Shown one piece after another: positions 3,349-58,730 of a stretch of 64,000 nucleotides of DNA. A program made the translations under genes and the position numbers. The DNA comes from Candidatus Sungiibacteriota bacterium (GTDB taxonomy: Bacteria; Patescibacteriota; Minisyncoccia; Sungbacterales; HO2-52-23): the NCBI GenBank assembly GCA_016432465.1, contig CP066690.1, positions 526,823 to 590,822 on the forward strand. The letters run 5' to 3'. Position 1 is the stretch's first letter; every line of letters starts with the position of its first letter. The notes under the pieces are model-generated. The model did not search any database. It was not told the origin of the DNA and saw nothing but the letters and a program-made list of their open reading frames with translations.

Positions 3349-3648
3349 ATGATAAAAAACAAACAATACGAAGGCGAGGTGGTTGTTAAAAATGTACCTC
3401 CAAATTTCAGGAAAGAACTCTTGAATCTTATTGAAAATATGGGAGAGCGCGCAATGCGCCGCGATGTTTTGGACAGAGTTTTAGATTTAAGATTTAAGGA
3501 TAAAGATTTAAGAATCACGACCTCTGAAAATCAGCTTGCCCAAAAAATCGCCCTCAAGATTCAGGAAGTTTTTAAAAATAAGATAGAGAAAAAGATTCGT
3601 CGGGGGAAAGAAGGAGGGGTGTCCAGCGTCCTTGTTGACTTTTTATAA
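3349..3648 (+). CDS. hypothetical protein (start uncertain; frame is open upstream to 3208 without a canonical start)
   Basis: ORF with basic C-terminus. The upstream in-frame stretch encodes CPHG...CPAH but has no ATG/GTG/TTG. Confidence 0.4.
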   Translation: MIKNKQYEGEVVVKNVPPNFRKELLNLIENMGERAMRRDVLDRVLDLRFKDKDLRITTSENQLAQKIALKIQEVFKNKIEKKIRRGKEGGVSSVLVDFL

Positions 3649-4306: not shown

Positions 4307-4852
4307 CTAGGCCGATTTTTGGTTGGAGATACGCATACATTTCCAGATTTCCCAAAGAGTAGCAATGGTAAATATTATATTTAGGGCGAGAAACGGCAGC
4401 GACCCCACGCGATATGCGTAAAACGCCATCAGCACTCCTCCTGTAGTAAAAAATGTATTCCCGAGTGTGGTTTGCGCAAACGGAATGCCGAGCCCCAGTC
4501 CCACGATAGCAGCTACACCGAGCCATCTTAGCTGAGAGTCAATACTGCCGCCTGAGTACATACTTAAAATAGTCAGTATTGCGAAGAAGATAACCGTTGC
4601 AGCACTATCTGGATTCTTCCTTGCGCCCATGAAGGAAGCAACCAGTATGATTGTCTGCCCTCCTATAAATATAGGATCTCCTCCAAAAACAGCAAAGGAC
4701 CAGAGCATGATGCCGCCAATAAGAAATAGCCACGCCTGACGTTTTTTATCAAGAATACCCCATGTTAAAACCAAGAGCCCTGTATAAGCGAGAAGGTTAA
4801 AAACCGCGCTCCACAAAGAAGTAAAACCCAATACCGCCTGCCAATTGGGCAT
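4307..4852 (-). CDS. hypothetical integral membrane protein
   Basis: About 5 hydrophobic helices. No recognisable family. Confidence 0.5.
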   Translation of the reverse strand: MPNWQAVLGFTSLWSAVFNLLAYTGLLVLTWGILDKKRQAWLFLIGGIMLWSFAVFGGDPIFIGGQTIILVASFMGARKNPDSAATVIFFAILTILSMYSGGSIDSQLRWLGVAAIVGLGLGIPFAQTTLGNTFFTTGGVLMAFYAYRVGSLPFLALNIIFTIATLWEIWKCMRISNQKSA

Positions 4853-4924
4853 TATAACCCCTTAGATTATTGTTTTTGTGCTGAAGTTACGTTATCATTT
4901 CATCATTATAAATGTCAATCTTTT

Positions 4925-6199
4925 ATGAGAGTTATTGCTGACTTACATATTCATTCCCCTTACGCCCGCGCCGTATCTAAAGATATGACTTTGGAGAATT
5001 TGGATTTTTGGGCAGGGCTTAAAGGAATTACCGTAATGGGAACAGGAGATTTTACGCACCCGCAATGGATACGCGAGATTAAAACAAAACTGGAACCGGC
5101 GGAGCCGGGACTTTATAAACTTAAGTCAAGCGTCAAGGGTCAAATGTCAAATGTCGGTAAGCAAGAAACGCGTTTTTTGCTTACCGTTGAGATTTCAAGT
5201 ATTTATTCCAAAGGCGGGAAGACACGCAGGATCCACAACTTAATTTTTGCCCCATCAATTGAAACCGTGGAAAAAATAAACGCGCAGCTTGGCTGGCGGG
5301 GAAATTTAAAATCAGACGGCAGGCCAATCTTGGGGCTTGATTCCAAAGAGCTTGCCAAAATTGTTTTAAACATTGATGAGCGATGTATGATTGTGCCGGC
5401 GCACGCCTGGACCCCCTGGTTCAGTATTTTTGGTTCAATGTCAGGGTTTAACTCTATTGAGGAATGTTTTGACGAGTACGCAAAATATATTTATGCGGTG
5501 GAAACAGGACTTTCCAGCGACCCCGCGATGAACTGGCGGTGGTCGCATCTTGATAACATTGCCTTGATTTCTAATTCCGACAGCCACTCTCTGCAAAAAA
5601 TTGGCCGCGAGGCAAATGTATTTGATACAGAACTTTTCTATGATGGAATTATTGACGCGATAAAGTCGCACGACCCCAAAAAATTTCTTTACACCATAGA
5701 ATTTTTCCCGGAGGAGGGGAAATATCACTATGACGGCCATCGCCTATGCAAGTTTTCTTGCGGACCGGAGGAGACAAAACGCCTAAAAAAAATCTGTCCG
5801 CAATGCAACAAGGCTGTGACCGTAGGTGTTCTGAATCGCGTGGACGAACTGGCCGACCGCCCGGAGGGCGCAAGACCGGAGCGCGTCATACCCTTCAAAA
5901 GTCTTGTGCCTTTGGACGAAATTATTGCCGAAGGTTTTGGGGTGGGGACGTCGGCCAAGAAAGTGAAGATCGCTTACCGGGACTTGGTTGAAAAAATGGG
6001 AAGCGAGTTTGCGGTTTTGGTTGATGCTTCCCAATCCGATCTGGAGGCATCTGCGGCGCCCGAGATTGTGGAGGGTGTTATGAGAACGCGCGAGGGGCGG
6101 CTGCACATTGAACCCGGATACGATGGGGAGTATGGAAAAGTAAAAATTTTTGAAGAGGCGGAGCGAAAAGAAATTACAAAACAAACCGCACTTTTCTGA
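4925..6199 (+). CDS. PHP-domain nuclease, endonuclease Q (EndoQ)-like
   Basis: N-terminal ADLHIHSPYARAVSKDMT PHP signature. 424 aa. C-terminal zinc-finger-like CGPEE...CPQC. Architecture matches the EndoQ family (recalled, not searched). Confidence 0.5.
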   Translation: MRVIADLHIHSPYARAVSKDMTLENLDFWAGLKGITVMGTGDFTHPQWIREIKTKLEPAEPGLYKLKSSVKGQMSNVGKQETRFLLTVEISSIYSKGGKTRRIHNLIFAPSIETVEKINAQLGWRGNLKSDGRPILGLDSKELAKIVLNIDERCMIVPAHAWTPWFSIFGSMSGFNSIEECFDEYAKYIYAVETGLSSDPAMNWRWSHLDNIALISNSDSHSLQKIGREANVFDTELFYDGIIDAIKSHDPKKFLYTIEFFPEEGKYHYDGHRLCKFSCGPEETKRLKKICPQCNKAVTVGVLNRVDELADRPEGARPERVIPFKSLVPLDEIIAEGFGVGTSAKKVKIAYRDLVEKMGSEFAVLVDASQSDLEASAAPEIVEGVMRTREGRLHIEPGYDGEYGKVKIFEEAERKEITKQTALF

Positions 6200-6221
6200 A
6201 TTTATGGTAGGGAAAAATCCC

Positions 6222-6249
6222 TTGACAGGTTGTGAACGAGCGTTATACT
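6222..6249 (+). promoter_or_regulatory. sigma70-like promoter (TTGACA -16nt- TATACT)
   Basis: TTGACA at 6222-6227 and TATACT at 6244-6249, upstream of the S8 protease gene. Confidence 0.45.
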
Positions 6250-6287
6250 TACTTTATTATTAACAATTTCTAAATAGTTTCATTTTT

Positions 6288-7487
6288 ATGTCATATTCCA
6301 TAAACTATAAACATATTTTATATCTCGTCGTGCTGCTGCTTGCGGGAGTATTAATGTCGCTGCCGTTTGGCGGCCGCGGAGCTTATTCCGGGCGGAAAAT
6401 TGTTGTTTTTGACGAACATTTTGTAAATAAAGCAGCTCAGGAGGAGTTGCTTGCCAAAGCCGGCGGAGTAAAAACCAAAGACTTGCCGCTTATTAATGGC
6501 TCTGCCGTGTTTCTTCCCAGCAAAGCCTCGGAGCGCGCACTTTTAGTTAATCCTGCGGTAAAACGTATTGATGATGATGTCGTGGTTTCTATACTGGGGA
6601 AAGTCGGAGCCGGCGGTAGTGGCTCAACCCAACCCGCTCAAGTATTGCCTTGGGGAATTGATCGGATAGATGCCGAGCTTGTCTGGCCAGGTGGTAACAC
6701 CGCCGACCCCATAAAAGTGGGCGTTATTGATACTGGCATTTCCAATAAACATCCGGACCTTCTTGATAATGTAAAAGGCGGGGTTAATACTATAAATCCC
6801 AACAAAAACTGGAATGATGATAACGGTCATGGCTCGCATGTTGCGGGGATTGTCGGCGCGCTACAAAATAGTATTGGCGTTGTGGGTGCAGGACCGGCAG
6901 TTGATCTTTATGCCATCAAAGTACTTGGCGCCAATGGTTCTGGTTTTCTTTCCGATGTAGTTGAGGGAATTCAGTGGGCAGTGCAAAACGGCATGCAAGT
7001 AGTCAATATGAGTCTCGGAACCTCAAGCGATGTTCCTTCCCTGCATGATGCTGTTCTTGTTGCCCATAATGCCGGAGTAACCGTAGTCGCGGCAGCAGGT
7101 AATAGCGGCGGCGCAGTAATTTTTCCCGCAGCATATTCTGAAGTAATTGCGGTATCAGCGACCGATCAAAATAACGTGCTCGCTTCTTGGTCTTCGCGCG
7201 GTCCGGAAGTTGATCTGGCCTCACCCGGAGTTTCCATATACTCTACCTACAAGGGTACAGGATACGCTACACTTTCCGGGACTTCTATGGCCGCCCCGCA
7301 TGTTGCGGGTTCCGCGGCACTGGTTCTGAATACGCCAGTTGGTTTCTATGATGTGAATAGTAACGGTAAATGGGATCCTGCGGAGGTGCAAAAAAAGCTG
7401 CAGGATACAGCAGTGGATCTTGGGACAACTGGGGTGGATGGTTTGTACGGATGGGGACTGGTGAATGTTTTTAACGCGACACAGTAA
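6288..7487 (+). CDS. subtilisin-like serine protease (peptidase S8) with N-terminal signal/propeptide
   Basis: Catalytic triad motifs VIDTGI (Asp), HGSHVAG (His) and GTSMAAPHVAG (Ser). Confidence 0.9.
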   Translation: MSYSINYKHILYLVVLLLAGVLMSLPFGGRGAYSGRKIVVFDEHFVNKAAQEELLAKAGGVKTKDLPLINGSAVFLPSKASERALLVNPAVKRIDDDVVVSILGKVGAGGSGSTQPAQVLPWGIDRIDAELVWPGGNTADPIKVGVIDTGISNKHPDLLDNVKGGVNTINPNKNWNDDNGHGSHVAGIVGALQNSIGVVGAGPAVDLYAIKVLGANGSGFLSDVVEGIQWAVQNGMQVVNMSLGTSSDVPSLHDAVLVAHNAGVTVVAAAGNSGGAVIFPAAYSEVIAVSATDQNNVLASWSSRGPEVDLASPGVSIYSTYKGTGYATLSGTSMAAPHVAGSAALVLNTPVGFYDVNSNGKWDPAEVQKKLQDTAVDLGTTGVDGLYGWGLVNVFNATQ

Positions 7488-7508
7488 CTAAAGTAGATCT
7501 CAAGGCAA

Positions 7509-11113: not shown

Positions 11114-11827
11114 ATGTCAAAACCACAATTCGTTGAGGACAATATCTATCATGTATATAACCGAGGCGTGGAGAAGAGAAACGTATTTCTTCGAGACCGA
11201 GACTACCTCCGTTTTATTCACGATCTCTATGAGTTTAATGATGTCGATCCTGTCTCCAATGTATGGTACTATTTCAACCCAAAATATAATGAGGTTGAAC
11301 CTCATTATATTCCAAAAGAACGGAAGAAACGTAAATTGCTTGTAGAGATTCTGGCATTCGTATTGATGCCGAATCATTATCATCTTCTTTTACGCCAGCT
11401 TCGAGAAAATGGTATTGTAAATTTTATGCAGAAGCTGGGCGGCTACACGATGTATTTTAACAAAGTGAATCAACGGGTTGGTCCACTTTTTCAGGGACGA
11501 TTTAAGGCGGTTGCGGTTACCGAAGAACCCCACTTTATTTACCTGCCGTTCTATATTCATGTTAACCCCATCAAAATCTATCGAGGTTCGACCTCGCTAG
11601 ATAAGACGATGAAGTTCTTAGAATCATATCGCTGGAGCAGCTTTCCCGATTATATTGGAAAAAAGAATTTTCCTTCGATAACTTCGCGCCGATTTCTGCA
11701 TGAATGTTTTGGCGGGGAAAAGGAACAACGGAATGAAATGCGGCAGCTTGTCAAAACGAAATTTGCTGATTTGGAAAAGGTTAGTGAGCTGACCCTCGAT
11801 GATGATTTCGGAATGCTACAAAAATAG
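11114..11827 (+). CDS. Y1 (HUH) transposase, IS200-like / REP-associated tyrosine transposase (RayT/TnpA_REP)-like
   Basis: HUH motif in LMPNHYHLLL. N-terminal IYHVYNRGV. GRFKAV and a Tyr-containing C-terminal region. About 237 aa. Confidence 0.65.
   Translation: MSKPQFVEDNIYHVYNRGVEKRNVFLRDRDYLRFIHDLYEFNDVDPVSNVWYYFNPKYNEVEPHYIPKERKKRKLLVEILAFVLMPNHYHLLLRQLRENGIVNFMQKLGGYTMYFNKVNQRVGPLFQGRFKAVAVTEEPHFIYLPFYIHVNPIKIYRGSTSLDKTMKFLESYRWSSFPDYIGKKNFPSITSRRFLHECFGGEKEQRNEMRQLVKTKFADLEKVSELTLDDDFGMLQK
11291..11303. repeat. palindromic hairpin GAGGTTGAACCTC (copy 2, inside transposase CDS)
   Basis: 18-nt identity with copy 1 (TAATGAGGTTGAACCTCA). Confidence 0.8.
11583..11595. repeat. palindromic hairpin GAGGTTCGACCTC (copy 3, inside transposase CDS)
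   Basis: cgaggttcgacctcgctag, read directly. Confidence 0.75.
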
Positions 11828-15639: not shown

Positions 15640-15660
15640 GATAAATTAGTCTTTAGACTC

Positions 15661-16013
15661 GGTGGAGATGGGGGGAATCGGACCCCCGTCTGGAAGTTTC
15701 GGCAGCTAAAATTTATACGGGTGTATCCCACACTTTGCGGGAAGAGGTGCTCGATAAATGTCATAACCCCTATCGAGCATCTGGGTTACCAAGCTCGGTG
15801 TTATAACACCGGTTTGCTCTCTCACGAGCGTTGAGAGACCGATGCCACAAATCCGAAGATTCGTAGGGTTCTTTCGTTAAGCTACTGCGTAGGCAGGCTG
15901 CGCGAAAGATTTAAATAAGTTTGCACTTATTTGATGCGAGAATTTAACGAGTGATCTCGCGTCCTCGACCCGATTTTAACCACCTCTGACCCCCATCGAA
16001 GCCAATCATCCCC
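15661..16013 (-). ncRNA. ssrA: tmRNA (SsrA), about 353 nt
   Basis: Minus-strand 5' end GGGGAUGAUUGGCUUCGAUGGGGG. 3' end GGGGGUCCGAUUCCCCCCAUCUCCACC (T-arm plus acceptor). Internal tag ORF GCA AAC UUA ... GCU UAA encodes ANLFKSFAQPAYAVA*. smpB is adjacent. Confidence 0.8.
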
Positions 16014-16590: not shown

Positions 16591-18174
16591 ATGATAAGAT
16601 CCGAAATAAAAGCCGCGTTGAGGGACGCAATCCGGAAAATATTCGGCAAAGTTGAGGCGCCGGAATTTTCTATTGAGGTTCCGGAAAATCCGGAGCATGG
16701 CGATTATGCAACAAACGTAGCGCTAGTGCTGGCCAAGCAACTGAAAAAGCCTCCGATGGAAATCGCGCATAGTCTTGCCGCGCAACTTACAACTAAAGTC
16801 GAAGTTGCCCCCCCGGGATTTATTAATTTCTGGGTTTCCCCTGCTACATTATATAAAGAACTCGTTACGGTTCTGAAAAAGAATGACAAATATGGAAAGG
16901 GAGAGAGAAAGGCAACAAAAATCTCGGTTGAGTATCTGGACGCTAACCCCACTGGGCCTGTACATATAGGCCACGGACGCAGTGGGTTTTTGGGTGATGT
17001 ACTTTCCAACGTTCTTTCTTTTTTTGGATACCGCGTGACCAGAGAGTTTTATGTGAATAATGCCAAAATTAGTGGCCAGATAAAATCGTTAGGAAAAACT
17101 GCGCTTGGAAAAGGCAGCGAATACCGCCACGCACAGCTGCTTCGTATTCTAAAAACTCAACGGGTCCATACAAAAATCAAAAAATTAAAAAACGAAAGCG
17201 AGGCAGGATTTATTATCGCGCGTATAATACAGAAAGAAAATGAGGAATTGCTTAAAGAAAAAGCAAGGATTAGTTTTGATTTATTTTTTGAAGAAGAGGC
17301 GGTTTACAAATCTGGCGACGCAGAGCGGCTTCTCGGGCGTCTTAAAAAACAAGGAATTTTGTATGAGAAAGATGGCGCTTGGTGGTTTCAGGCAAAGAAA
17401 TTCGGCGACGCAGAAGATCGTGTTTTTGTACGAAGCACCGGAGAGCCGACATATATTGTTCCGGACATTGTTTACCACCTTGATAAGTTAGTGAATCGTA
17501 AAAACGACCTTGTTATCAATATCTTTGGCGCGGACCACTATGGTTACGGACCGCGTCTTCTGGGGGCCTTGAAGGCGCTTGGTATTGAACCGGCAAGGGT
17601 TCGTATACTCATCATGCAGACAGTCCGTCTGATTAAGGGCGGAAAAGAATTTAAGATGTCAAAACGCCGCGGCCTCTTTGTGACGCTTGAGGAACTTATT
17701 AAAGAAGTCGGTTTGGATGCCGCGCGGTACTTTTTCTTGGAAAAATCTCCGGATACGCATATGGATTTTGATCTGGATTTGGCAAAAGAGCGGTCGGTGA
17801 AGAATCCGGTGTACTATATTCAATATGCCCATGCTAGAATTTCGAGCATCTTTAAAAATGCTCGAAATTCAAATTACAAATTACAAATTACAAATTACAA
17901 ATTACTTAAAGAGAGGGAAGAACTAAGACTAATTAAAAAATTGATCCAATTCACCGAGATTGTGGAGGATACCGCTCGCGATTATCAAGTTCACCGTCTG
18001 CCGCGTTATGCTTACGAGCTTGCCCGCGCTTTTCATAATTTTTACGAAAAGCACCGCGTGATTACCGAAGATAAAAATTTGACCGCCGCCCGTCTTAATC
18101 TTGTTTCCGCAACCCAAGTTGTACTGAAAAATATTCTTAGTTTGATGGGTATCGGCGCGCCTGAAAAAATGTGA
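16591..18174 (+). CDS. argS: arginyl-tRNA synthetase
   Basis: HIGH-region PTGPVHIGHGRS. Class I ArgRS anticodon-binding C-terminus. Confidence 0.9.
   Translation: MIRSEIKAALRDAIRKIFGKVEAPEFSIEVPENPEHGDYATNVALVLAKQLKKPPMEIAHSLAAQLTTKVEVAPPGFINFWVSPATLYKELVTVLKKNDKYGKGERKATKISVEYLDANPTGPVHIGHGRSGFLGDVLSNVLSFFGYRVTREFYVNNAKISGQIKSLGKTALGKGSEYRHAQLLRILKTQRVHTKIKKLKNESEAGFIIARIIQKENEELLKEKARISFDLFFEEEAVYKSGDAERLLGRLKKQGILYEKDGAWWFQAKKFGDAEDRVFVRSTGEPTYIVPDIVYHLDKLVNRKNDLVINIFGADHYGYGPRLLGALKALGIEPARVRILIMQTVRLIKGGKEFKMSKRRGLFVTLEELIKEVGLDAARYFFLEKSPDTHMDFDLDLAKERSVKNPVYYIQYAHARISSIFKNARNSNYKLQITNYKLLKEREELRLIKKLIQFTEIVEDTARDYQVHRLPRYAYELARAFHNFYEKHRVITEDKNLTAARLNLVSATQVVLKNILSLMGIGAPEKM
17837..17898. 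repeat. 13-bp perfect inverted repeat (GAATTTCGAGCAT..ATGCTCGAAATTC) followed by (AAATTAC)x4 heptamer tandem array, in frame inside argS
   Basis: Read directly. Encodes ARISSIFKNARNSNYKLQITNYKLLKE. Confidence 0.8.
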
Positions 18175-21100
18175 CTATGAATATAGAAAAATCAAAATTA
18201 AGCCTTCCGGAGTTGGCCGCCCACCGAAAATGGGCGAGCCTCGCTCTTCCGGAGCGGGAAGAAAAAATTCTGAAATTCTGGGAGGAAAATAAAATTTTTG
18301 AAAAGTCCCTTGAAAAAACTAAACGGGGAAAGACCTTTGTTTTTTACGAAGGTCCTCCGACAGCCAATGCCGCTCCCGGGATTCATCACGTTTTGGCGCG
18401 CGCCTTCAAAGACATTATTCCGCGCTACAAAACCATGCGCGGGTTTTTTGTTCCGAGAAAAGCTGGTTGGGATACGCACGGTCTGCCCGTTGAGATTCAA
18501 ATAGAAAAAGAGCTTGGATTTAAAACCAAGCAGGATATAGAAAAATACGGCATTGCCAAGTTTAACCAAAAAGCCAAGGAGTCGGTGTGGCGTTACAAAG
18601 AAGAGTGGGAAAAGCTGACTAAGCGTATTGGGTATTGGCTTGACCTTGAGCACCCTTACATAACTTATGACATCCGGTATATGGAAACCCTCTGGTGGGT
18701 TATAAAAGAAATTTGGAAAAAGGGTTTACTGGTTGAAGATTTTAAAGTAGTTCCTTGGTGCCCTAGGTGTCAGACCGGACTTTCCACGCACGAGCTCGGC
18801 CAACCCGGAGCCTACAGATTAGTAAAAGATAACTCTATATATGTAAAACTAAAAATTAAGGGCCGTAAAAACGAGTACTTATTGGTTTGGACCACAACTC
18901 CATGGACGCTTCCCGCCAATGTTGCCGTAGCCGTCAATCCCAAGATTGATTACACAAAATTTAAAATTGATGATGAATTTTTGTGGTCAGCGGTGATGCC
19001 GCCCTACGGCAAAGACCAAAAGATTACGATCATAGAAAAAGCGTCCGGCAAATCTCTTATCGGTATAAATTATGAACCGCTTTTCCGTGTTCCCCAAGGC
19101 TACTCTTGGGGTAAAGAACCGGAGTTTGTAACAATCCCGGCAGATTTTGTTTCCACCGAAGAGGGGACGGGCATGGTTCATATTGCTCCTGCCTTCGGAG
19201 ACGAAGATATGTTGGCGGCCAAGAAAACTTGGGGCGCAAGCTATCCGATTTTACACACTGTTAATGTAAACGGAAAAATGAAAAAGGGAGTAATCGGGGA
19301 GGGGAAATTTGTCAAGGATGCGGACGAGGAGATAACCGCTGACCTTAAGAGGCGTAAACTTCTTTATCGCTTGGCGCCGTACGAACACGAGTATCCCCAC
19401 TGCTGGAGATGTGATACTCCGCTGCTTTATTTTGCCCAAAACGCTTGGTGGATAAGAACCACCGCCGTAAAAGACAAGCTTCTTAAAGAAAACGAAAAAA
19501 TTAACTGGATTCCGGAGCATTTAAAACACGGCCGCTTCGGCGATTTTTTGCGCGAGCTACGCGATTGGGCTTTTTCGCGCGAGAGGTATTGGGGAACGCC
19601 GCTTCCTATTTGGAAATGTACAGGGTGCAAAAAGCAAGAAGTTATCGGCAGCAGAGAAGAATTGAGTTTACGTGTCGGCAAAGCCAAGAACCGCTATTTT
19701 GCCATGCGTCACGGCGAGTCACTTGCCAACGTCCGCCACGTTTTTGATTCCCACGACAGTAAATTTCCAATAACCCTTAGGGGACGCAGCGCAGTAGAAA
19801 AGTCCGCCAAGACATTAAAACAAAAAAAGATAGATTTTATTTTTTCTTCAGAAATTCTTCGGGCACGAGAAACTGCAGAGATTGTAGCCAGGGCCCTTGG
19901 CCATAAAGAAATAAAATTTGACAGGCGTCTTAACGAAATTGACCCGGGCGTATTTGAAGGAAGATCTCCTGCCGAATATCATAAGTTTTATACCTCTACT
20001 CTTGAGAAATGGATAAAGCCCCCTCCGCGGGGAGAGTCTTTGGGAGACGTGCGAGCAAGAGCAACAGCGCTTCTGGAGGATTTAGAGAAAAAATATATAG
20101 GCAAAAATATTCTTTTGGTGAGTCATGACTATCCGATTTGGGCCCTGTATGCCGGAGCCGTGGGTTTTTCGGACGAGGAAGCGGTGCTATTTAGGAAACA
20201 GAGACGTGGGCAAGGAGAAGAATTTGTTGATTTTGCAGAAACCATGGAAGTCCCCTACAAAATTTTACCGCGCGATGATACGGGTTCGGTAAACCTGCAC
20301 CGACCCTATGTGGATTCATTTGAGTTTCCGTGCCATAAGTGTAAATCTTCAATGCGGCGAGTATTGGAAGTGGTTGATGTCTGGTTTGATTCGGGGGCGA
20401 TGCCGTTTGCTCAAAGCCACTGGCCATTTGCTAACAACCAACAACCTAAAAAATTGCTGTACCCCGCGGATTATATTGCGGAGGCGGTGGACCAGACAAG
20501 GGGCTGGTTTTATACCTTGCTTGCCGTGGCAACGCTTCTGGGGAAAGGGGCTCCGTATAAAAATGTCATTTCACTGGGACACGTTTTGGACAAAAACGGC
20601 CAGAAAATGTCCAAGTCCAAGGGCAACGTGGTTGATCCGTGGGAGATGATTGAAAAATACGGCGCCGACGCAGTCCGCTGGTATTTTTATACGGTTAATG
20701 CGCCCGGAGAGCCAAAACGTTTTGATGAAAAAGATTTACAGGCGAAACTGCGCGGATTTCTTATGACACTCTGGAACAGCTTTGTGCTTTTTGATACGTA
20801 TATAGAAAAAATTACAAATTCCTCGCCTCGTTCAAGCTCCGGCGGAGCGGGCAAAACCCAAAACCTTCTTGATCGGTGGGTCCTCACGAAAGTAGAAATT
20901 TTGATAAAAGAAGTTACGGCAAAGCTTGAGCGCTACGATATTGCCGGAGCGGGACGCGACTTGGAAGATTTTGTTATCAACGACTTTTCGCAATGGTATT
21001 TGCGGCGCTCCCGCAGACGTTTCCAACACCCGCAGTCCAAAAAAGAATTTGAGGGAGCCGCACAAACGACTGCTACGGCTTTGTTATCTCTAGTTAAACT

Positions 21101-21713
21101 TATTGCGCCGTTTGTCCCATTTTTGTCGGAGGCAATTTATCAAGAATTGAAAAAGAAAATGTCTCTTAAGGAATTGAGCGTACATCTCACACCGTGGCCC
21201 GACAAAGAGCAAAGAACAAGGGGTAAAGAGCAAAAATTACTGGATGATATGGAAGCAGTGCGGACCATTGTGGCCGAAGCTCTGAAATTACGTGCGGTAG
21301 CAGGAATTAAGGTAAGACAACCGCTGGGTATACTACAAATTGCAAATCGCAAATTATCTAAGGAGCTTCTGGGGCTTATTAAAGACGAAGTGAATGTGAA
21401 AGATATCGTCCTTGGTAGGGTATTGAAACTTGATACTGCGCTAACCCCGGAATTAAAAGAAGAAGGTTTGGCGCGCGAATTTATCCGCAACATTCAGGAG
21501 ATGCGAAAGGATTTGGGATTAAAACCCAAACAGGTTATTCGGGGACAGATAACGGGTGATAGAGCGACCGAAGATACGATGGTCAAGTGGCAGCAGATGA
21601 TTAAAAAAGAGACCAACATGCGCGAGTTAAAAGTCGGCGGCAAAAAAGAATTTAAAATAGAGCGTGAACTTGATTTTGACGGTAAATCCTTGTGGTTGGG
21701 GATTAAAGTATAA
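18171..21713 (+). CDS. ileS: isoleucyl-tRNA synthetase (type 2) carrying an inserted histidine-phosphatase-family domain
   Basis: HIGH-type GIHHV and KMSKS. Conserved SRERYWGTPLP and HRPYVD blocks are separated by about 190 aa containing RHGES and LVSHD motifs. GTG start overlaps the argS stop. Confidence 0.9.
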   Translation: MTMNIEKSKLSLPELAAHRKWASLALPEREEKILKFWEENKIFEKSLEKTKRGKTFVFYEGPPTANAAPGIHHVLARAFKDIIPRYKTMRGFFVPRKAGWDTHGLPVEIQIEKELGFKTKQDIEKYGIAKFNQKAKESVWRYKEEWEKLTKRIGYWLDLEHPYITYDIRYMETLWWVIKEIWKKGLLVEDFKVVPWCPRCQTGLSTHELGQPGAYRLVKDNSIYVKLKIKGRKNEYLLVWTTTPWTLPANVAVAVNPKIDYTKFKIDDEFLWSAVMPPYGKDQKITIIEKASGKSLIGINYEPLFRVPQGYSWGKEPEFVTIPADFVSTEEGTGMVHIAPAFGDEDMLAAKKTWGASYPILHTVNVNGKMKKGVIGEGKFVKDADEEITADLKRRKLLYRLAPYEHEYPHCWRCDTPLLYFAQNAWWIRTTAVKDKLLKENEKINWIPEHLKHGRFGDFLRELRDWAFSRERYWGTPLPIWKCTGCKKQEVIGSREELSLRVGKAKNRYFAMRHGESLANVRHVFDSHDSKFPITLRGRSAVEKSAKTLKQKKIDFIFSSEILRARETAEIVARALGHKEIKFDRRLNEIDPGVFEGRSPAEYHKFYTSTLEKWIKPPPRGESLGDVRARATALLEDLEKKYIGKNILLVSHDYPIWALYAGAVGFSDEEAVLFRKQRRGQGEEFVDFAETMEVPYKILPRDDTGSVNLHRPYVDSFEFPCHKCKSSMRRVLEVVDVWFDSGAMPFAQSHWPFANNQQPKKLLYPADYIAEAVDQTRGWFYTLLAVATLLGKGAPYKNVISLGHVLDKNGQKMSKSKGNVVDPWEMIEKYGADAVRWYFYTVNAPGEPKRFDEKDLQAKLRGFLMTLWNSFVLFDTYIEKITNSSPRSSSGGAGKTQNLLDRWVLTKVEILIKEVTAKLERYDIAGAGRDLEDFVINDFSQWYLRRSRRRFQHPQSKKEFEGAAQTTATALLSLVKLIAPFVPFLSEAIYQELKKKMSLKELSVHLTPWPDKEQRTRGKEQKLLDDMEAVRTIVAEALKLRAVAGIKVRQPLGILQIANRKLSKELLGLIKDEVNVKDIVLGRVLKLDTALTPELKEEGLAREFIRNIQEMRKDLGLKPKQVIRGQITGDRATEDTMVKWQQMIKKETNMRELKVGGKKEFKIERELDFDGKSLWLGIKV

Positions 21714-22028
21714 GAAGTGTCATGGTGGATAAAGAAAAATGCCACACATTGGTGGCACTACTTGCGAAGGATTGAAAGGAGTGAGTTGAGAGAAATCCAT
21801 GCAGCAGCCGCAAACGAGAATGACGCTTGTACATGACCGGTCAAATGATATACTCCATAGCCGACAAAAAGACCGAATAGCATAGATTGCGCTTGATATC
21901 TGTTGATCATTGCGTCCTCCGCGTGTTTGATAGACCTATTTGATAGAGTAGCAAATTCAGATATGAATTATAAGAGTCACTATAGGATAGGAATGAAGTA
22001 ACAAAGGTGCCACAGTAATTTTTAAGTT

Positions 22029-46024: not shown

Positions 46025-46110
46025 TGGTGCCCGGGGAGAGACTTGAACTCTCAAGGTCTTGCGACCAGTGGATTTTGAGTCCACCGCGTATGCCATTCCG
46101 CCACCCGGGC
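46025..46110 (-). tRNA. tRNA-Leu (anticodon CAA), type II with long variable arm, CCA encoded
   Basis: Minus strand GCCCGGGTGGCGGAATGG...GGACTCAAAATCC...GGTCGCAAGACC...GAGAGTTCAAGTCTCTCCCCGGGCACCA. Confidence 0.85.
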
Positions 46111-50259: not shown

Positions 50260-50811
50260 CTAAATTGTGCCAGTCGCACTGAGCGATACGATATGGATAT
50301 ATTTGCTCATACGGCGGGCGTCAATACTTTTAATAAGCGTTTCGGGCAGGGGGCGTTTCCCAATGTAAACGCTTTTTTGAAGCGGCTCGAATCCGCAGGC
50401 TAGAAGTTCCTTACGCAGCCACGAGCGTTTTTCTTTCTCGTCCTCGGGGATATCAAAGGTAACAAGACGCGTCAGGCCGTCAGCGGGTGGGAGTATATGC
50501 GTCATCCTTGGTTCTGCCGGTTTTGTATCTTTTAACTTGTGCAGCCCTTTCTTGGTGATGCGCCACCTTGCTTTTTTCTTAGGACCCGCACATACCACCA
50601 AACCTTCTCTTTTGAGGCGATTTAGAATACTTGAAAGCGAGTGTTTGGCTTCGGGGACGGAGGAGTATCGTACGTGGTCGAGTCCGAACAAACCGCGGAT
50701 TAATCCCGTACCCGGGTAGTATTTAGGGAAGAAGGCGTCGATCATAAGCGGTCCAGCTTCTGCCAGCTGATCAAGAAGAGCGCGTGTTATGGATTTTAAC
50801 ACCTTTTTCAT
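50260..50811 (-). CDS. PaaX-like transcriptional regulator (N-terminal winged helix + C-terminal Cas2-fold-like domain)
   Basis: The C-terminal LVTFDIPEDEKEKRSWLRKELLACGFEPLQKSVYIG resembles a PaaX_C/Cas2-like fold. The N-terminus is wHTH-like. Confidence 0.5.
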   Translation of the reverse strand: MKKVLKSITRALLDQLAEAGPLMIDAFFPKYYPGTGLIRGLFGLDHVRYSSVPEAKHSLSSILNRLKREGLVVCAGPKKKARWRITKKGLHKLKDTKPAEPRMTHILPPADGLTRLVTFDIPEDEKEKRSWLRKELLACGFEPLQKSVYIGKRPLPETLIKSIDARRMSKYIHIVSLSATGTI

Positions 50812-54202: not shown

Positions 54203-54727
54203 GTGTCCGTGAAAGAGCGAAACCCCCTTTATGATGCCGCACGGAGGGGACCGCCAGTAGCAATAGCTCTTTTCATTTTACTACTATTTGTAATCGCACT
54301 GGCCTCAATTGGGTTTCAGTATTATAAGTATTGGCCTCGCCACGGAACCTCCTACTACGTTCATCCTGTCGGCATACCCATTTATAATATGAGCAATGTT
54401 AAGATTAGTTGGGAAGAATGGACCAGCATGGTTAAAACCGTAGATAAGTCTTTGGAAACTCTTAAATCGTGTCTTGGGGTCGCAGATATGCTGGACGAAG
54501 ACAAACTTCTTAGCGTTTCTATTATAGTACTGCCCCCGGAGACCATAACCCATTTTAAAGAAGCAGTAGAAGGATTTATCGGCCTAAAGTATATTTTTAT
54601 TCGTCGGGATCTTTTTGACGAGTCTCGTTTGGTCCACGAATGGCTGCATGCTTATTTTTTCCTGGCCTATCGCTGGAGAAGCAATTTATTTCATCAGAGT
54701 CCTTTATTTAAAAAGTGTGGTCAATAA
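54203..54727 (+). CDS. hypothetical membrane-anchored protein with HExxH motif (putative minimal zinc metallopeptidase)
   Basis: N-terminal TM. LVHEWLHAYF contains HEWLH. Confidence 0.45.
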   Translation: MSVKERNPLYDAARRGPPVAIALFILLLFVIALASIGFQYYKYWPRHGTSYYVHPVGIPIYNMSNVKISWEEWTSMVKTVDKSLETLKSCLGVADMLDEDKLLSVSIIVLPPETITHFKEAVEGFIGLKYIFIRRDLFDESRLVHEWLHAYFFLAYRWRSNLFHQSPLFKKCGQ

Positions 54728-56970: not shown

Positions 56971-57018
56971 ATTTACTCCGCCACGAGGTGGAGTATTTTT
57001 GTTAAAGCGTGTGTATAC

Positions 57019-57048
57019 TTGACAATATGGTGCTTTCTGTGCTAAGAT
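57019..57048 (+). promoter_or_regulatory. sigma70-like promoter (TTGACA -18nt- TAAGAT)
   Basis: TTGACA at 57019-57024. Followed by SD AAGGAGAAG and ATG at 57085. Confidence 0.5.
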
Positions 57049-57084
57049 GCTAACAGTTCCATCGTCGCTTCACAAGGAGAAGCA

Positions 57085-57309
57085 ATGCCGCCTGAAAAAG
57101 AGCTTGTTTGCGGAGAGTTTGATAGAGTTGAATATCTTGAAAATCATACCATCTTTTATTTCAAAGAGGGTCAAACTTTTGTTTTTAAGGGTCTTATAAG
57201 TTCGTCGTACGTACGGGGAGAGATTTTGTCGGTGGTTGGTAATCCAGATAATCCTAGAATAGTATCTAATGGAATGGGCTGTATGATCTTCGGTGGAGGT
57301 TGTATATAG
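57085..57309 (+). CDS. small protein (74 aa), hypothetical, C-terminus NGMGCMIFGGGCI
   Basis: Strong promoter and SD. Terminator downstream. Confidence 0.5.
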   Translation: MPPEKELVCGEFDRVEYLENHTIFYFKEGQTFVFKGLISSSYVRGEILSVVGNPDNPRIVSNGMGCMIFGGGCI

Positions 57310-57350
57310 TGGCACGGTATATCTAGCCTGTGTTCTCGTTCTTCTTTTCC

Positions 57351-57385
57351 AGCATAGCCATCAAGATAGGATGGCTATTTTTTAT
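57351..57385 (+). terminator. rho-independent terminator
   Basis: ATAGCCATC-aagata-GGATGGCTAT + TTTTTATTC. Confidence 0.6.
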
Positions 57386-57555
57386 TCTTACGCCCCATGA
57401 CCCATGACACTTTTGCTTTTTCAATAACCAACCGCAGGGATTTTCCCCCGGCCTCCGTAGCTTTATGCGAAGGAGGCTTTATTTTAAGCCGTTTTTCAAT
57501 CTGTGAATACTTCGAATTGGTCATTTTATAGAAAATGTCATGGTGATTCAAAAAC

Positions 57556-57585
57556 TTGACAAATGCTATACTTTCATGCTATACT
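57556..57585 (+). promoter_or_regulatory. sigma70-like promoter (TTGACA -18nt- TATACT)
   Basis: Followed by SD AGGAGGTG and ATG at 57630. Confidence 0.5.
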
Positions 57586-57629
57586 TTAGGCAGTATTCCA
57601 GTTAGTACAACCTTAACAGGAGGTGGGCC

Positions 57630-57830
57630 ATGGCCAGCGAGATGACGGAGCACGGAGAGGTGTTCAAGTGCGAATCGGGGAACTTCGTGGGGTTCGGCGG
57701 ATCCTCATCGCTTGCCAAGATTCTCTTGGCCGCAGAGAAGGAATTTCCTGGCGTACTCCCTGAAAACCTGGAAGTCTACTGCACTGATGACCGCGACCTC
57801 TACCTCGCTCCCAAGAGCAAGTCCAAGTGA
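57630..57830 (+). CDS. small protein (66 aa), hypothetical, GC-rich coding sequence
   Basis: Strong SD. Clearly GC-richer than surroundings. Terminator hairpin overlaps the stop codon. Confidence 0.5.
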   Translation: MASEMTEHGEVFKCESGNFVGFGGSSSLAKILLAAEKEFPGVLPENLEVYCTDDRDLYLAPKSKSK

Positions 57831-57850
57831 CTTGCTCTTCTTTTTTATTC
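57816..57850 (+). terminator. rho-independent terminator
   Basis: AGAGCAAGT-ccaagtg-ACTTGCTCT + TCTTTTTTATTCC. Confidence 0.55.
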
Positions 57851-57974
57851 CTCTACGCCCCATGACATCTCTTATACTTATTCCAGTGACAAAAATACCC
57901 TGCGGATTTGTCGCATTGATTTTTATGTTCAAGTATTGTACTATAAATTAGGTTGTCTTACCGAAGTGTGGCTT

Positions 57975-58556
57975 ATGCGTAAATCCGTTCTGGTCTGGAG
58001 TATGGCAACTGTAATACTGATTGTGTTTCAGGCGTCGGCCCACGAAGATCACGTCTCTCCACTACCGAAAAGAGCCAACGAAACACTTAGCTGCACCGGG
58101 GGAGTCGCATTTGTTCCGGATACTGCCCGCGGCGAGGGAACAATCTTAGTGATCATCACAAATCGCGCTGACTACCGTCTTCGTTTGATGGGATCGGGAA
58201 TCTTTAAAGAATCTCCATCCCTTGATCCGCGTCACTGCTTAAAGCGCTTTATACATTTCGGTAAGCATAGGATTGCCCTTTCTGCTTTCCGACTTAAAAC
58301 CTACCCCTGGTTTAAATCGCTTGAGGAATGGTTTGACGTTGGCGGAGGGTTGGTTAGTCTCGCCACGCCTAATGTAGCGCAGGCAGTCGTATATGCCGAG
58401 ATCACGAACGAAGATATAGTTCTTTATTCCGTTGGTGAGCATCTGCGGAAAAACTGGTTCAAATATTTCAGCATTGCAAGCCTGTATTTACTTACGCTTC
58501 TCACGTTAGCCGGATTACTCGTAGTGACCCGGATCGTACTCAAACTTAAAGGATAG
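57975..58556 (+). CDS. secreted protein with C-terminal membrane anchor, hypothetical
   Basis: Signal peptide MRKSVLVWSMATVILIVFQASA. C-terminal TM IASLYLLTLLTLAGLLVV. Confidence 0.5.
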   Translation: MRKSVLVWSMATVILIVFQASAHEDHVSPLPKRANETLSCTGGVAFVPDTARGEGTILVIITNRADYRLRLMGSGIFKESPSLDPRHCLKRFIHFGKHRIALSAFRLKTYPWFKSLEEWFDVGGGLVSLATPNVAQAVVYAEITNEDIVLYSVGEHLRKNWFKYFSIASLYLLTLLTLAGLLVVTRIVLKLKG

Positions 58557-58730
58557 ACCAATTTTACCCCGTGATTCTTCACGTGGTATTTTAATAAGGT
58601 TCGTTTACCAAGACGGCATCAAAAAAGAACGGAAAACCCGTTCTTTTTTGATGGAAAAAACACTGATTGACAAGAGTACAAGATCAGGCTATACCATAGA
58701 GTAAGAACGTTGACATAAGAAAGGCAAGTC

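Follow-up and report, generated by a model that had tools for sequence, protein, structure and literature searches.

The 64,000-nucleotide (nt) stretch of Candidatus Sungiibacteriota DNA analyzed here (contig CP066690.1, positions 526,823–590,822; hereafter the window) carries at ~56997–58660 a lineage-specific insertion of ~1.7 kb, which consists of three monocistronic units containing the open reading frames (ORFs) ORF1, ORF2, and orf206. The first two units each end in the same short tag. Judged by its DNA homology, this tag corresponds, on the other strand, to the final codons of the SecA tail, a SEC-C zinc finger (..K-Y-K-R-C-H-G-A-stop), and to the A-rich stretch after them. The same scaffold with other cargo was found in other genomes, and we infer that this locus holds a relocated copy of a scaffold with variable cargo whose usual place is after secA. 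High confidence attaches to four points together: what the tag is, that the locus is an insertion, that its scaffold is shared while the cargo varies, and that ORF2 is a real gene under purifying selection. The whole account, which adds to these points a mechanism of insertion and later relocation, is favored with moderate confidence; the mechanism taken alone, insertion at the secA tail, is tentative and falls somewhat short of an even chance.

Bacteria of the candidate phyla radiation (CPR, or Patescibacteria) have tiny genomes with few recognizable mobile elements, and to our knowledge gene gain in such bacteria is poorly understood. Both small genes of the locus are orphans or near-orphans. 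The features are listed below with their strands (SD, Shine–Dalgarno sequence; aa, amino acids); the last one lies outside the insertion.

56974–57002 (+): terminator of the DUF58 gene (hairpin and T-run), the left edge of the insertion; an equivalent is present in the relatives, where the promoter of the next gene follows directly
57019–57048 (+): promoter-like site 1, TTGACA (57019–57024), 18-nt spacer, TAAGAT (57043–57048), TG-extended, agreeing with the consensus at 10 of 12 positions
57075–57080 (+): SD of ORF1, AAGGAG
57085–57309 (+): ORF1, 74 aa (HYW89_03160)
57354–57385 (+): terminator of ORF1, hairpin (57354–57378) with a 9-bp stem, and T-run
57387–57440 (−): SecA-tail relic R1 (T2 type), GENPCGWLLKKQKCHG and then A-stop; its end is tag copy 1
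57396–57554 (−): conserved block of ~130 nt with a promoter-like site, an A-rich leader, and relic R1 at its end (nhmmer with the block profile, E 5e-29)
57446–57476: GC-rich hairpin of 31 nt, an insertion within the block, which looks like a terminator on the + strand
57551–57523 (−): promoter-like site of the block, TTGAAT-17-TAAAAT, predicted from its consensus match
57556–57585 (+): promoter-like site 2, TTGACA (57556–57561), 18-nt spacer, TATACT (57580–57585), with TG, agreeing with the consensus at 11 of 12 positions
57619–57626 (+): SD of ORF2, AGGAGGTG
57630–57830 (+): ORF2, 66 aa (HYW89_03165)
57813–57848 (+): terminator of ORF2, hairpin (57813–57839) with an 11-bp stem, overlapping the ORF2 stop codon
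57853–57920 (−): SecA-tail relic R2 (T1 type), NQCDKSAGYFCHWNKYKRCHGA-stop, containing indels and lacking a start codon; tag copy 2 forms its end
57975–58556 (+): orf206, third gene of the insertion, 193 aa from ATG, a predicted membrane or secreted protein
58617–58653 (bidirectional): terminator with a 16-bp stem, the right edge of the insertion, just ahead of the promoter of the gene for a 585-aa protein
21681–21732 (+): the third of the SecA-tail relics, NPCGWGLKYKKCHGG-stop, in a frame other than that of the isoleucyl-tRNA synthetase (IleRS) gene, whose final 11 codons and stop it overlaps

Homologues of the DUF58 protein (45–50% identity) were found in three related lineages (L104–L110; numbers of this kind denote loci in other genomes), where the gene belongs to the cluster relA, topA, dprA, MoxR, DUF58. 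The DUF58 gene of these relatives is followed by 105–135 nt containing a terminator and a promoter, then by a gene for a 536–600-aa protein, a VWA protein gene, and the rest of the cluster. ORF1, ORF2, orf206, the tail relics, and the block are all absent from these loci, and therefore the ~56997–58660 segment is an insertion. A sequence-only reading of the window had suggested looking for an uninterrupted DUF58 junction in related genomes, and the junction is indeed uninterrupted there. That reading had also placed the two small genes inside an operon. The insertion stands, but its borders are a terminator and a promoter also present in the relatives, which places it between two transcription units of the conserved cluster. 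Read along the minus strand, the order is R2, ORF2 (on the opposite strand), the block ending in R1, and ORF1 (again on the opposite strand); orf206 forms a separate third unit. The insertion's outer junctions, left and right, were both recovered in independent Logan assemblies of four runs. Three runs yielded Logan contigs that stop at 57429, and a contig of SRR12113384 starts again at 57580, which suggests that the 150-nt core of the block (57430–57579) may also be present in the community between different flanks, either as a repeat or as a strain variant.

Both small genes are self-contained expression units, and all the elements described in the sequence-only reading (promoter, SD, small ORF, and terminator) are present in each module. 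The 22-mer that it reported at both 3′ ends is shared, but it really consists of a 10-mer, TTTTTTATTC (at 57378 and 57841), ahead of a 13-mer, TACGCCCCATGAC (57389–57401 and 57854–57866), with a gap of 1 nt in the first copy and 3 nt in the second. A check for further copies of the 13-mer gave only these two exact ones in the 64 kb; with up to two mismatches, four matches were found in the window against 0.89 expected. The TTTTTTATTC..TACGCCCCATGAC pair forms direct repeats around a 465-bp unit (57402–57866). The duplication noticed in promoter-like site 2 was likewise confirmed: ATGCTATACTTT occurs as a 13-nt tandem repeat at 57563 and 57576 (57563–57587), and this repeat supplies the correctly spaced −10 box. 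Since the repeat is found in L180 too, it is old. The same promoter region resembles a tail relic (TGACAAATGCTATACTT versus TGACATCTCTTATACTT), and ATTCCAGT occurs at both 57595 and 57880.

The reverse complement of TACGCCCCATGAC is (T)GT CAT GGG GCG TA(A/G), which reads C-H-G-A-stop. The window and L007 share conserved non-coding stretches, in particular CCATGACATCTCTTATACTT, and a scan with TGACAYCTCTTATACTT of one genome per GTDB species yielded 96 loci. About 30 of these came from CPR genomes and had a long common extension of the pattern, the opposite strand of which translates as the end of 820–950-aa ORFs (..GRNDPCPCGSGKKYKRCHG[KA]-stop); the Pfam SEC-C model matches a real tail with an E value of 9e-13 (48 bits). 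The real secA end of L056, a Saccharibacteria metagenome-assembled genome (MAG), is identical to window positions 57854–57880 (27 of 27 nt). Relic R2 keeps KYKRCHG and reads FCHWNKYKRCH; its extent up to 57920 was read from the open frame, and the profile match covers 57854–57884. Relic R1 is broken by a 7-bp tandem duplication, CCATGAC (57395–57408), and has 87–91% DNA identity to L086 7442–7486 and L009 3595–3639, both of which are located 3′ of a real secA. When a profile of 19 real CPR secA ends was run against the window with nhmmer, the best matches were the three relics, 21687–21731 (+) with E 2.7e-7, 57884–57854 (−) with E 4.2e-7, and R1 with E 0.44. The relics are thus homologous in DNA to real secA 3′ ends, as both nhmmer and the identity with L056 indicate, and the tag, rather than being a 3′ signal of the cassettes or an attC site, corresponds to a coding relic of the SecA C terminus on the other strand. 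A “shared 3′ tag” beside terminators can therefore be a coding relic of the opposite strand. As for the third relic, its DNA encodes the C terminus of IleRS (..KSLWLGIKV-stop).

At the protein level, the relics differ from the SEC-C motif (PF02810): either the start codon and the CxC half are missing or the sequence has indels or a stop, and none of them belongs to a SecA protein here. The translations of R1 and R2 gave no match to Pfam SEC-C, and the relic at 21681–21732 scored 15.6 bits (E 0.015), below the cutoff of 20.4. The zinc-ligand pattern CxC..C[HC] of SEC-C is not found in the relics; R1 reads PCGWLLKKQKCH.

Relic R1 forms the end of the conserved block. Nine loci, five of them Saccharibacteria MAGs, have one copy each of this block, and window positions 57402–57548 show 75–91% identity to the blocks of L025, L086, L009, L050, and L014. 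The block is absent from Parcubacteria-type secA loci and from the Sungiibacteriota relatives. Promoter-like elements are present in all block copies, and that of the window is convergent on ORF1 and back-to-back with promoter-like site 2. The latter site, including the repeated TATACT, is conserved beside the block in L180, and its TTGACAAAT..TGCTATAAT part is conserved beside the block in L007. The 31-nt hairpin at 57446–57476 is absent from the blocks of L025, L086, L009, L050, and L180, and similar hairpins occur elsewhere at L025 3091–3115 and L007 2365–2386. Several identities of the block were considered and rejected. RNAalifold of eight blocks gave −0.42 kcal/mol with three pairs and no covariation, which argues against a structured RNA, and no Rfam match was obtained in the locus at E values up to 5, nor in L007, L180, L086, L009, or L025. 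No frame has a conserved start codon, which argues against a small ORF or a programmed frameshift. The block has ends (CCATGACA..TGTCATGG) like those of a miniature inverted-repeat transposable element or a repetitive extragenic palindromic (REP) repeat, but it is single-copy in the window and in the eight other loci; the hairpin, considered as a REP family of its own, is unique in the window. The pattern GGTTATTRAAAAAGCAAAA, used for a metagenome scan, coincides with the conserved rho coding sequence (MVIEKAK), and among the matches listed the only true ones were L180 and L216.

Downstream of real secA genes in Saccharibacteria, the order is secA, a tail relic, convergent cargo, the block ending in a second relic, and cargo. 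In L086, relic T1, HVNKYKKCHGA-stop (7029–7050), comes after secA (4311–6836) on the same strand, and next to it lies an opposite-strand gene for a 74-aa Cys-rich protein with its own promoter, SD, and terminator. The block (7366–7495) ends in relic T2, NKENPCGWLLKKQKCHGA-stop, beyond which lies an opposite-strand gene for a 73-aa protein with TTTACA-17-TATACT and the SD AGGAGGTG. Between the real tail and T1, a gene for a 23-aa hydrophobic peptide, MKPLHVVCIVAIVLALVAIWLSF (6860–6960, −), with a TATAAT promoter and an AGGAGG SD, constitutes a unit convergent on the secA stop. The same elements are present in the same order in L009, L025, L050, L014, L180, and L007. One or two weaker copies of the tail follow the real one on the same strand in L086, L009, L033, L040, L027, L050, and L075, and the copies flank cargo in L086, L009, L033, and L040. 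Their scores against the secA-tail profile mostly decrease with distance from secA: 58.5, 20.8, and 1.6 bits in L086; 55, 52, and 3 bits in L009; 59.8 and 15.3 bits in L033; and 59.7 and 10.8 bits in L040. The window has 25.8 and 6.5 bits and no intact copy. L075 is an exception, since its downstream copy scores 35.3 versus 24.7 bits.

Each genome carries unrelated cargo between the conserved pieces. It is ORF2 in the window, a 65-aa membrane protein in L025, a 67-aa protein in L050, and an ORF of up to 112 aa in L180. At L007 2197–2345 and L009 about 3440–3540 (−), the cargo is RNA-like, with a strong promoter and terminator, a transcript-like length of about 150 and about 100 nt, respectively, no ORF, and no Rfam family. 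The tail itself is conserved to the extent that 27–44 nt are identical across phylum-level lineages. The ATG within it (TGTC-ATG-GG) starts the next same-strand gene in L033, L009, and L014, and the ATG of the block tail is the start of a DUF1653 gene in L009 and of a gene for a 108-aa protein in L014. In L180, a tyrosine integrase gene (627–1628) is located directly upstream of a SecA-tail relic, at a distance of 280 nt. This integrase gene is flanked on both sides (250–620 and 1629–1900) by non-coding stretches that share TTAGCATAGGG(G)TTGT.. (about 306–350 and 1732–1780), with no Rfam match. No similarity was found in viral, phage, and plasmid collections, and a literature search turned up no description of secA-tail relics or of CPR cassette arrays.

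ORF1 and ORF2 are annotated as hypothetical proteins of the Candidatus Sungiibacteriota MAG, whose contig here measures 923 kb. The sequence-only reading described ORF2 as GC-rich and unlike its neighbors, and the contrast is stronger than stated: its GC content at third codon positions (GC3) is 0.74, whereas host genes have 0.46 ± 0.03, and none of 1213 host windows of 66 codons reaches that value (maximum, 0.667), which gives it a foreign-looking codon usage. ORF1 is an outlier in the low direction (GC3 0.31; 0.7% of windows), and orf206 is normal (0.48). A word-indexed search of 5.8 billion clusters returned only self matches for ORF1 and ORF2, and the orphan status of ORF1 refers to this search. 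Exhaustive phmmer, which was run with ORF2 against 1.84 billion representatives, found one relative, P0003 (65 aa, 68% identity). Its gene is located near SEC-C tails on a 2.5-kb NCBI contig (L007) and has a matching layout, with a TTGACA..TATAAT promoter, the SD AAGGAGGT, and a terminator overlapping the stop; the terminator stems of the two genes differ by three compensatory changes. The ratio of nonsynonymous to synonymous substitution rates (dN/dS) between ORF2 and P0003 is 0.15 with a saturated dS of about 1.4. ORF2 is therefore a genuine, anciently diverged protein gene under purifying selection.

As the sequence-only reading had anticipated, ORF1 and ORF2 belong to no recognized family: Pfam, NCBIfam, PHROGs, and a PDB sequence search gave no match. 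No family match was obtained for orf206 either. Single-sequence AlphaFold2 (AF2) models were poor, with a predicted local distance difference test score (pLDDT) of 63 for ORF2 and 54 for ORF1, the latter all-beta, and Foldseek of the models against the PDB gave nothing below E 1. The negative family and fold searches leave the toxin- or bacteriocin-like cargo of that reading without backing. Both proteins look soluble and are without a hydrophobic helix, and they are probably accessory small proteins with their own predicted sigma-70-type promoters. A start of L004 inside ORF2, which was considered as a variant, was rejected as a Nextera adapter artifact.

The mechanism that we tentatively propose is as follows. 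Self-contained units would be inserted repeatedly at the stop region of secA, each insertion leaving secA intact and displacing a copy of its tail. The newest unit would thus be nearest to secA, with older tail copies further out and more decayed. The ultra-conserved tail would probably serve as the recombination site, either homologous (Campbell-type) or site-specific, and an array without secA would later have been moved, or horizontally acquired, into the bat-like cluster of this genome. Because the ATG of the tail is the start of the next gene, an insertion between secA and its neighbor keeps both genes only if the overlap is duplicated, and this overlap together with the decay gradient favors repeated insertion at the secA stop region. 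The conservation of the tail would be sufficient for homologous recombination, and the competence gene dprA is present in the window.

This arrangement resembles the islands found at the 3′ ends of conserved genes (such as tRNA, tmRNA, and guaA genes), whose integration leaves behind a second, displaced copy of the target 3′ end. In both, direct repeats of that 3′ end enclose the insert, the target gene remains intact, tandem accretion builds up a row of copies, and the cargo looks foreign. Direct repeats derived from a target 3′ end do surround the insert here. The present case differs in that the units are tiny (0.3–0.5 kb) and without an integrase of their own, the target is the zinc-finger tail of secA, the relic types are conserved between genomes, and the array of the window is detached from secA. 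An adjoining tyrosine integrase is found beside the relic only in L180. The present case would be a secA-tail version of a known theme, insertion at the 3′ end of a conserved gene.

A number of observations weigh against this account. The match of R1 alone to the secA-tail profile is weak (E 0.44), and that of R2 is partly circular, because the secA ends of the profile were collected with a 17-mer from R2. There is no secA in the 64-kb window, to which the view of the host is limited. No recombinase or integrase was detected in the window, either as a Phage_integrase domain in the long ORFs or by phmmer with the L180 integrase, and a nearby integrase is found in one of the nine block-bearing loci (L180). 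Direct evidence of mobility would be a pair of close relatives distinguished by one cassette, and none was found. In the T2 relic (window 57396–57440, L086, L009, L180, and L216), nine of the ten variable sites are at codon position 3 (p about 0.001). Its peptide, E(N/K)PCGWLLKKQKCH, is kept in the SEC-C frame, with a conserved in-frame TAA just upstream and no frame having a conserved start codon; the codon-position-3 bias is unexplained by the relic model. The tail copies of a given genome differ from one another, and the T1 and T2 types are more alike between genomes than to the secA tail of their own genome. This may point to an old scaffold that has been maintained, not one produced by recent events.

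This last point leads to the alternative of a maintained regulatory scaffold, which we regard as unlikely but worth real weight. The block and relics would then be functional non-coding elements passed on vertically (promoters placed back-to-back, a leader, and a context for the start codon that arose from the overlap of secA and the next gene), between which cargo is swapped by homologous recombination after DNA uptake; neither a dedicated cassette mechanism nor insertion scars would be involved. The conservation of the single-copy block across genomes whose proteins are far more diverged agrees with this, as do the promoter-like elements in every block copy and the start codons that the block tail provides in L009 and L014. 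The saturated dS of the ORF2 homologues, both of which nevertheless lie near tails, and the presence of dprA point the same way. Islets exchanged by homologous recombination after natural transformation are also similar in having conserved flanks (here the tail and A-run, and the promoter and block) and unrelated inserts, and in the company of dprA, but the present flanks consist of short non-coding relics, not of core genes, and are shared across phylum-level lineages. The maintained scaffold leaves unexplained why its parts look like decayed SecA tails with scores dropping by distance, and why they are present in this Sungiibacteriota cluster and absent in the relatives. No RNA structure was found for the block either.

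That ORF1 and ORF2 are small toxins regulated by antisense RNA is improbable. As in type I toxin–antitoxin systems, an antisense RNA from the block promoter would control a harmful small protein, and the promoter-like site at 57551–57523 (−) does face ORF1, the hydrophobic peptide cassette of L086 is convergent on secA, and the L025 cargo is a membrane protein. However, a small hydrophobic toxin with an overlapping antisense RNA was not found here: ORF1 and ORF2 are soluble-looking proteins of 66–74 aa, two of the cargoes appear to be non-coding, PHROGs and NCBIfam gave no match, and the antisense promoter is a consensus match.

Still less credible, and largely refuted, is an array of integron-like gene cassettes. 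Every cassette would then bring along the tag as an attC-type site on which an integron integrase acts. Integron arrays and clusters of attC sites lacking integron integrases (CALINs) share with these loci short single-gene units with unrelated cargo, a recurring boundary site, and a fixed platform; the window has two consecutive units of similar size with a common end motif, the cargo varies in other genomes, and a tyrosine recombinase is located close to a relic in L180. Against this, RYYYAAC is absent from 56990–58000, and the single GTTRRRY lies inside ORF1, so that no core sites are found at the boundaries. There is no attC-like imperfect palindrome, the folded tag regions giving terminator hairpins only, and no IntI or other integrase was found in the 64 kb. 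The units, unlike typical integron cassettes, which are promoterless, have their own promoter-like sites and terminators; they are oriented against the platform gene, and the recurring site is homologous to coding sequence of the other strand. Of the mobile small-gene cassettes of the sequence-only reading, cassette-like horizontal movement thus remains plausible, since the same scaffold carries unrelated cargo elsewhere, but the integron and toxin interpretations do not hold.

The least probable explanation, ordinary orphan genes with a chance or generic terminator tag or else an assembly chimera, could draw on the abundance of orphan genes in CPR genomes and on the lack of a Logan contig over 57430–57579, the stretch joining the two halves, but chance is excluded by the homology to secA ends and the scaffold in eight other loci, and a chimera is made unlikely by the outer junctions in independent assemblies and by the genes on the two halves, which belong to the upstream and downstream parts of one cluster whose synteny is shared by the relatives.

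Returning to repeated insertion at the secA tail, a broader form of it is possible, though on balance doubtful: the last ~30–60 nt of secA may act as a CPR gene-capture site, an attachment or homology site for self-expressing micro-units. Small-protein or small-RNA units, each extending from a start site to a terminator hairpin, would be inserted there one after another, and the arrays would be marked by progressively decayed copies of the SecA tail. Whole arrays or parts of them could move across phylum-level lineages and to new chromosomal sites, as in the window. If the region downstream of secA is a dedicated or favored landing site for small genes that bring their own expression signals, part of the orphan content of CPR genomes would be explained. 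SecA-tail relics would then be a simple search key for recently gained genes in thousands of MAGs, and the site would offer a natural insertion point for genetic tools in cultivable Saccharibacteria.

Other features of the window were also noted. The conserved cluster contains a second lineage-specific insertion between dprA and the MoxR ATPase gene, a gene for a 174-aa protein with no family match (54203–54727, +); it is regarded as an insertion because related Sungiibacteriota have only 120–190 nt of intergenic DNA at this position. IleRS (1180 aa; 18171–21713, +) has a phosphoglycerate-mutase-like His_Phos_1 domain (residues 511–670) between the halves of its catalytic domain. A 237-aa protein (11114–11827, +) gives a borderline match to IS200-like Y1 transposases (23.3 bits versus a cutoff of 23) and could be like the REP-associated tyrosine transposases (RAYT-like). 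A 183-aa protein (50260–50811, −) has a PaaX_M/Cas2-like domain. The only Rfam families in the window are a tmRNA gene (15660–16013, −; 126 bits) and a tRNA gene (46028–46110, −).

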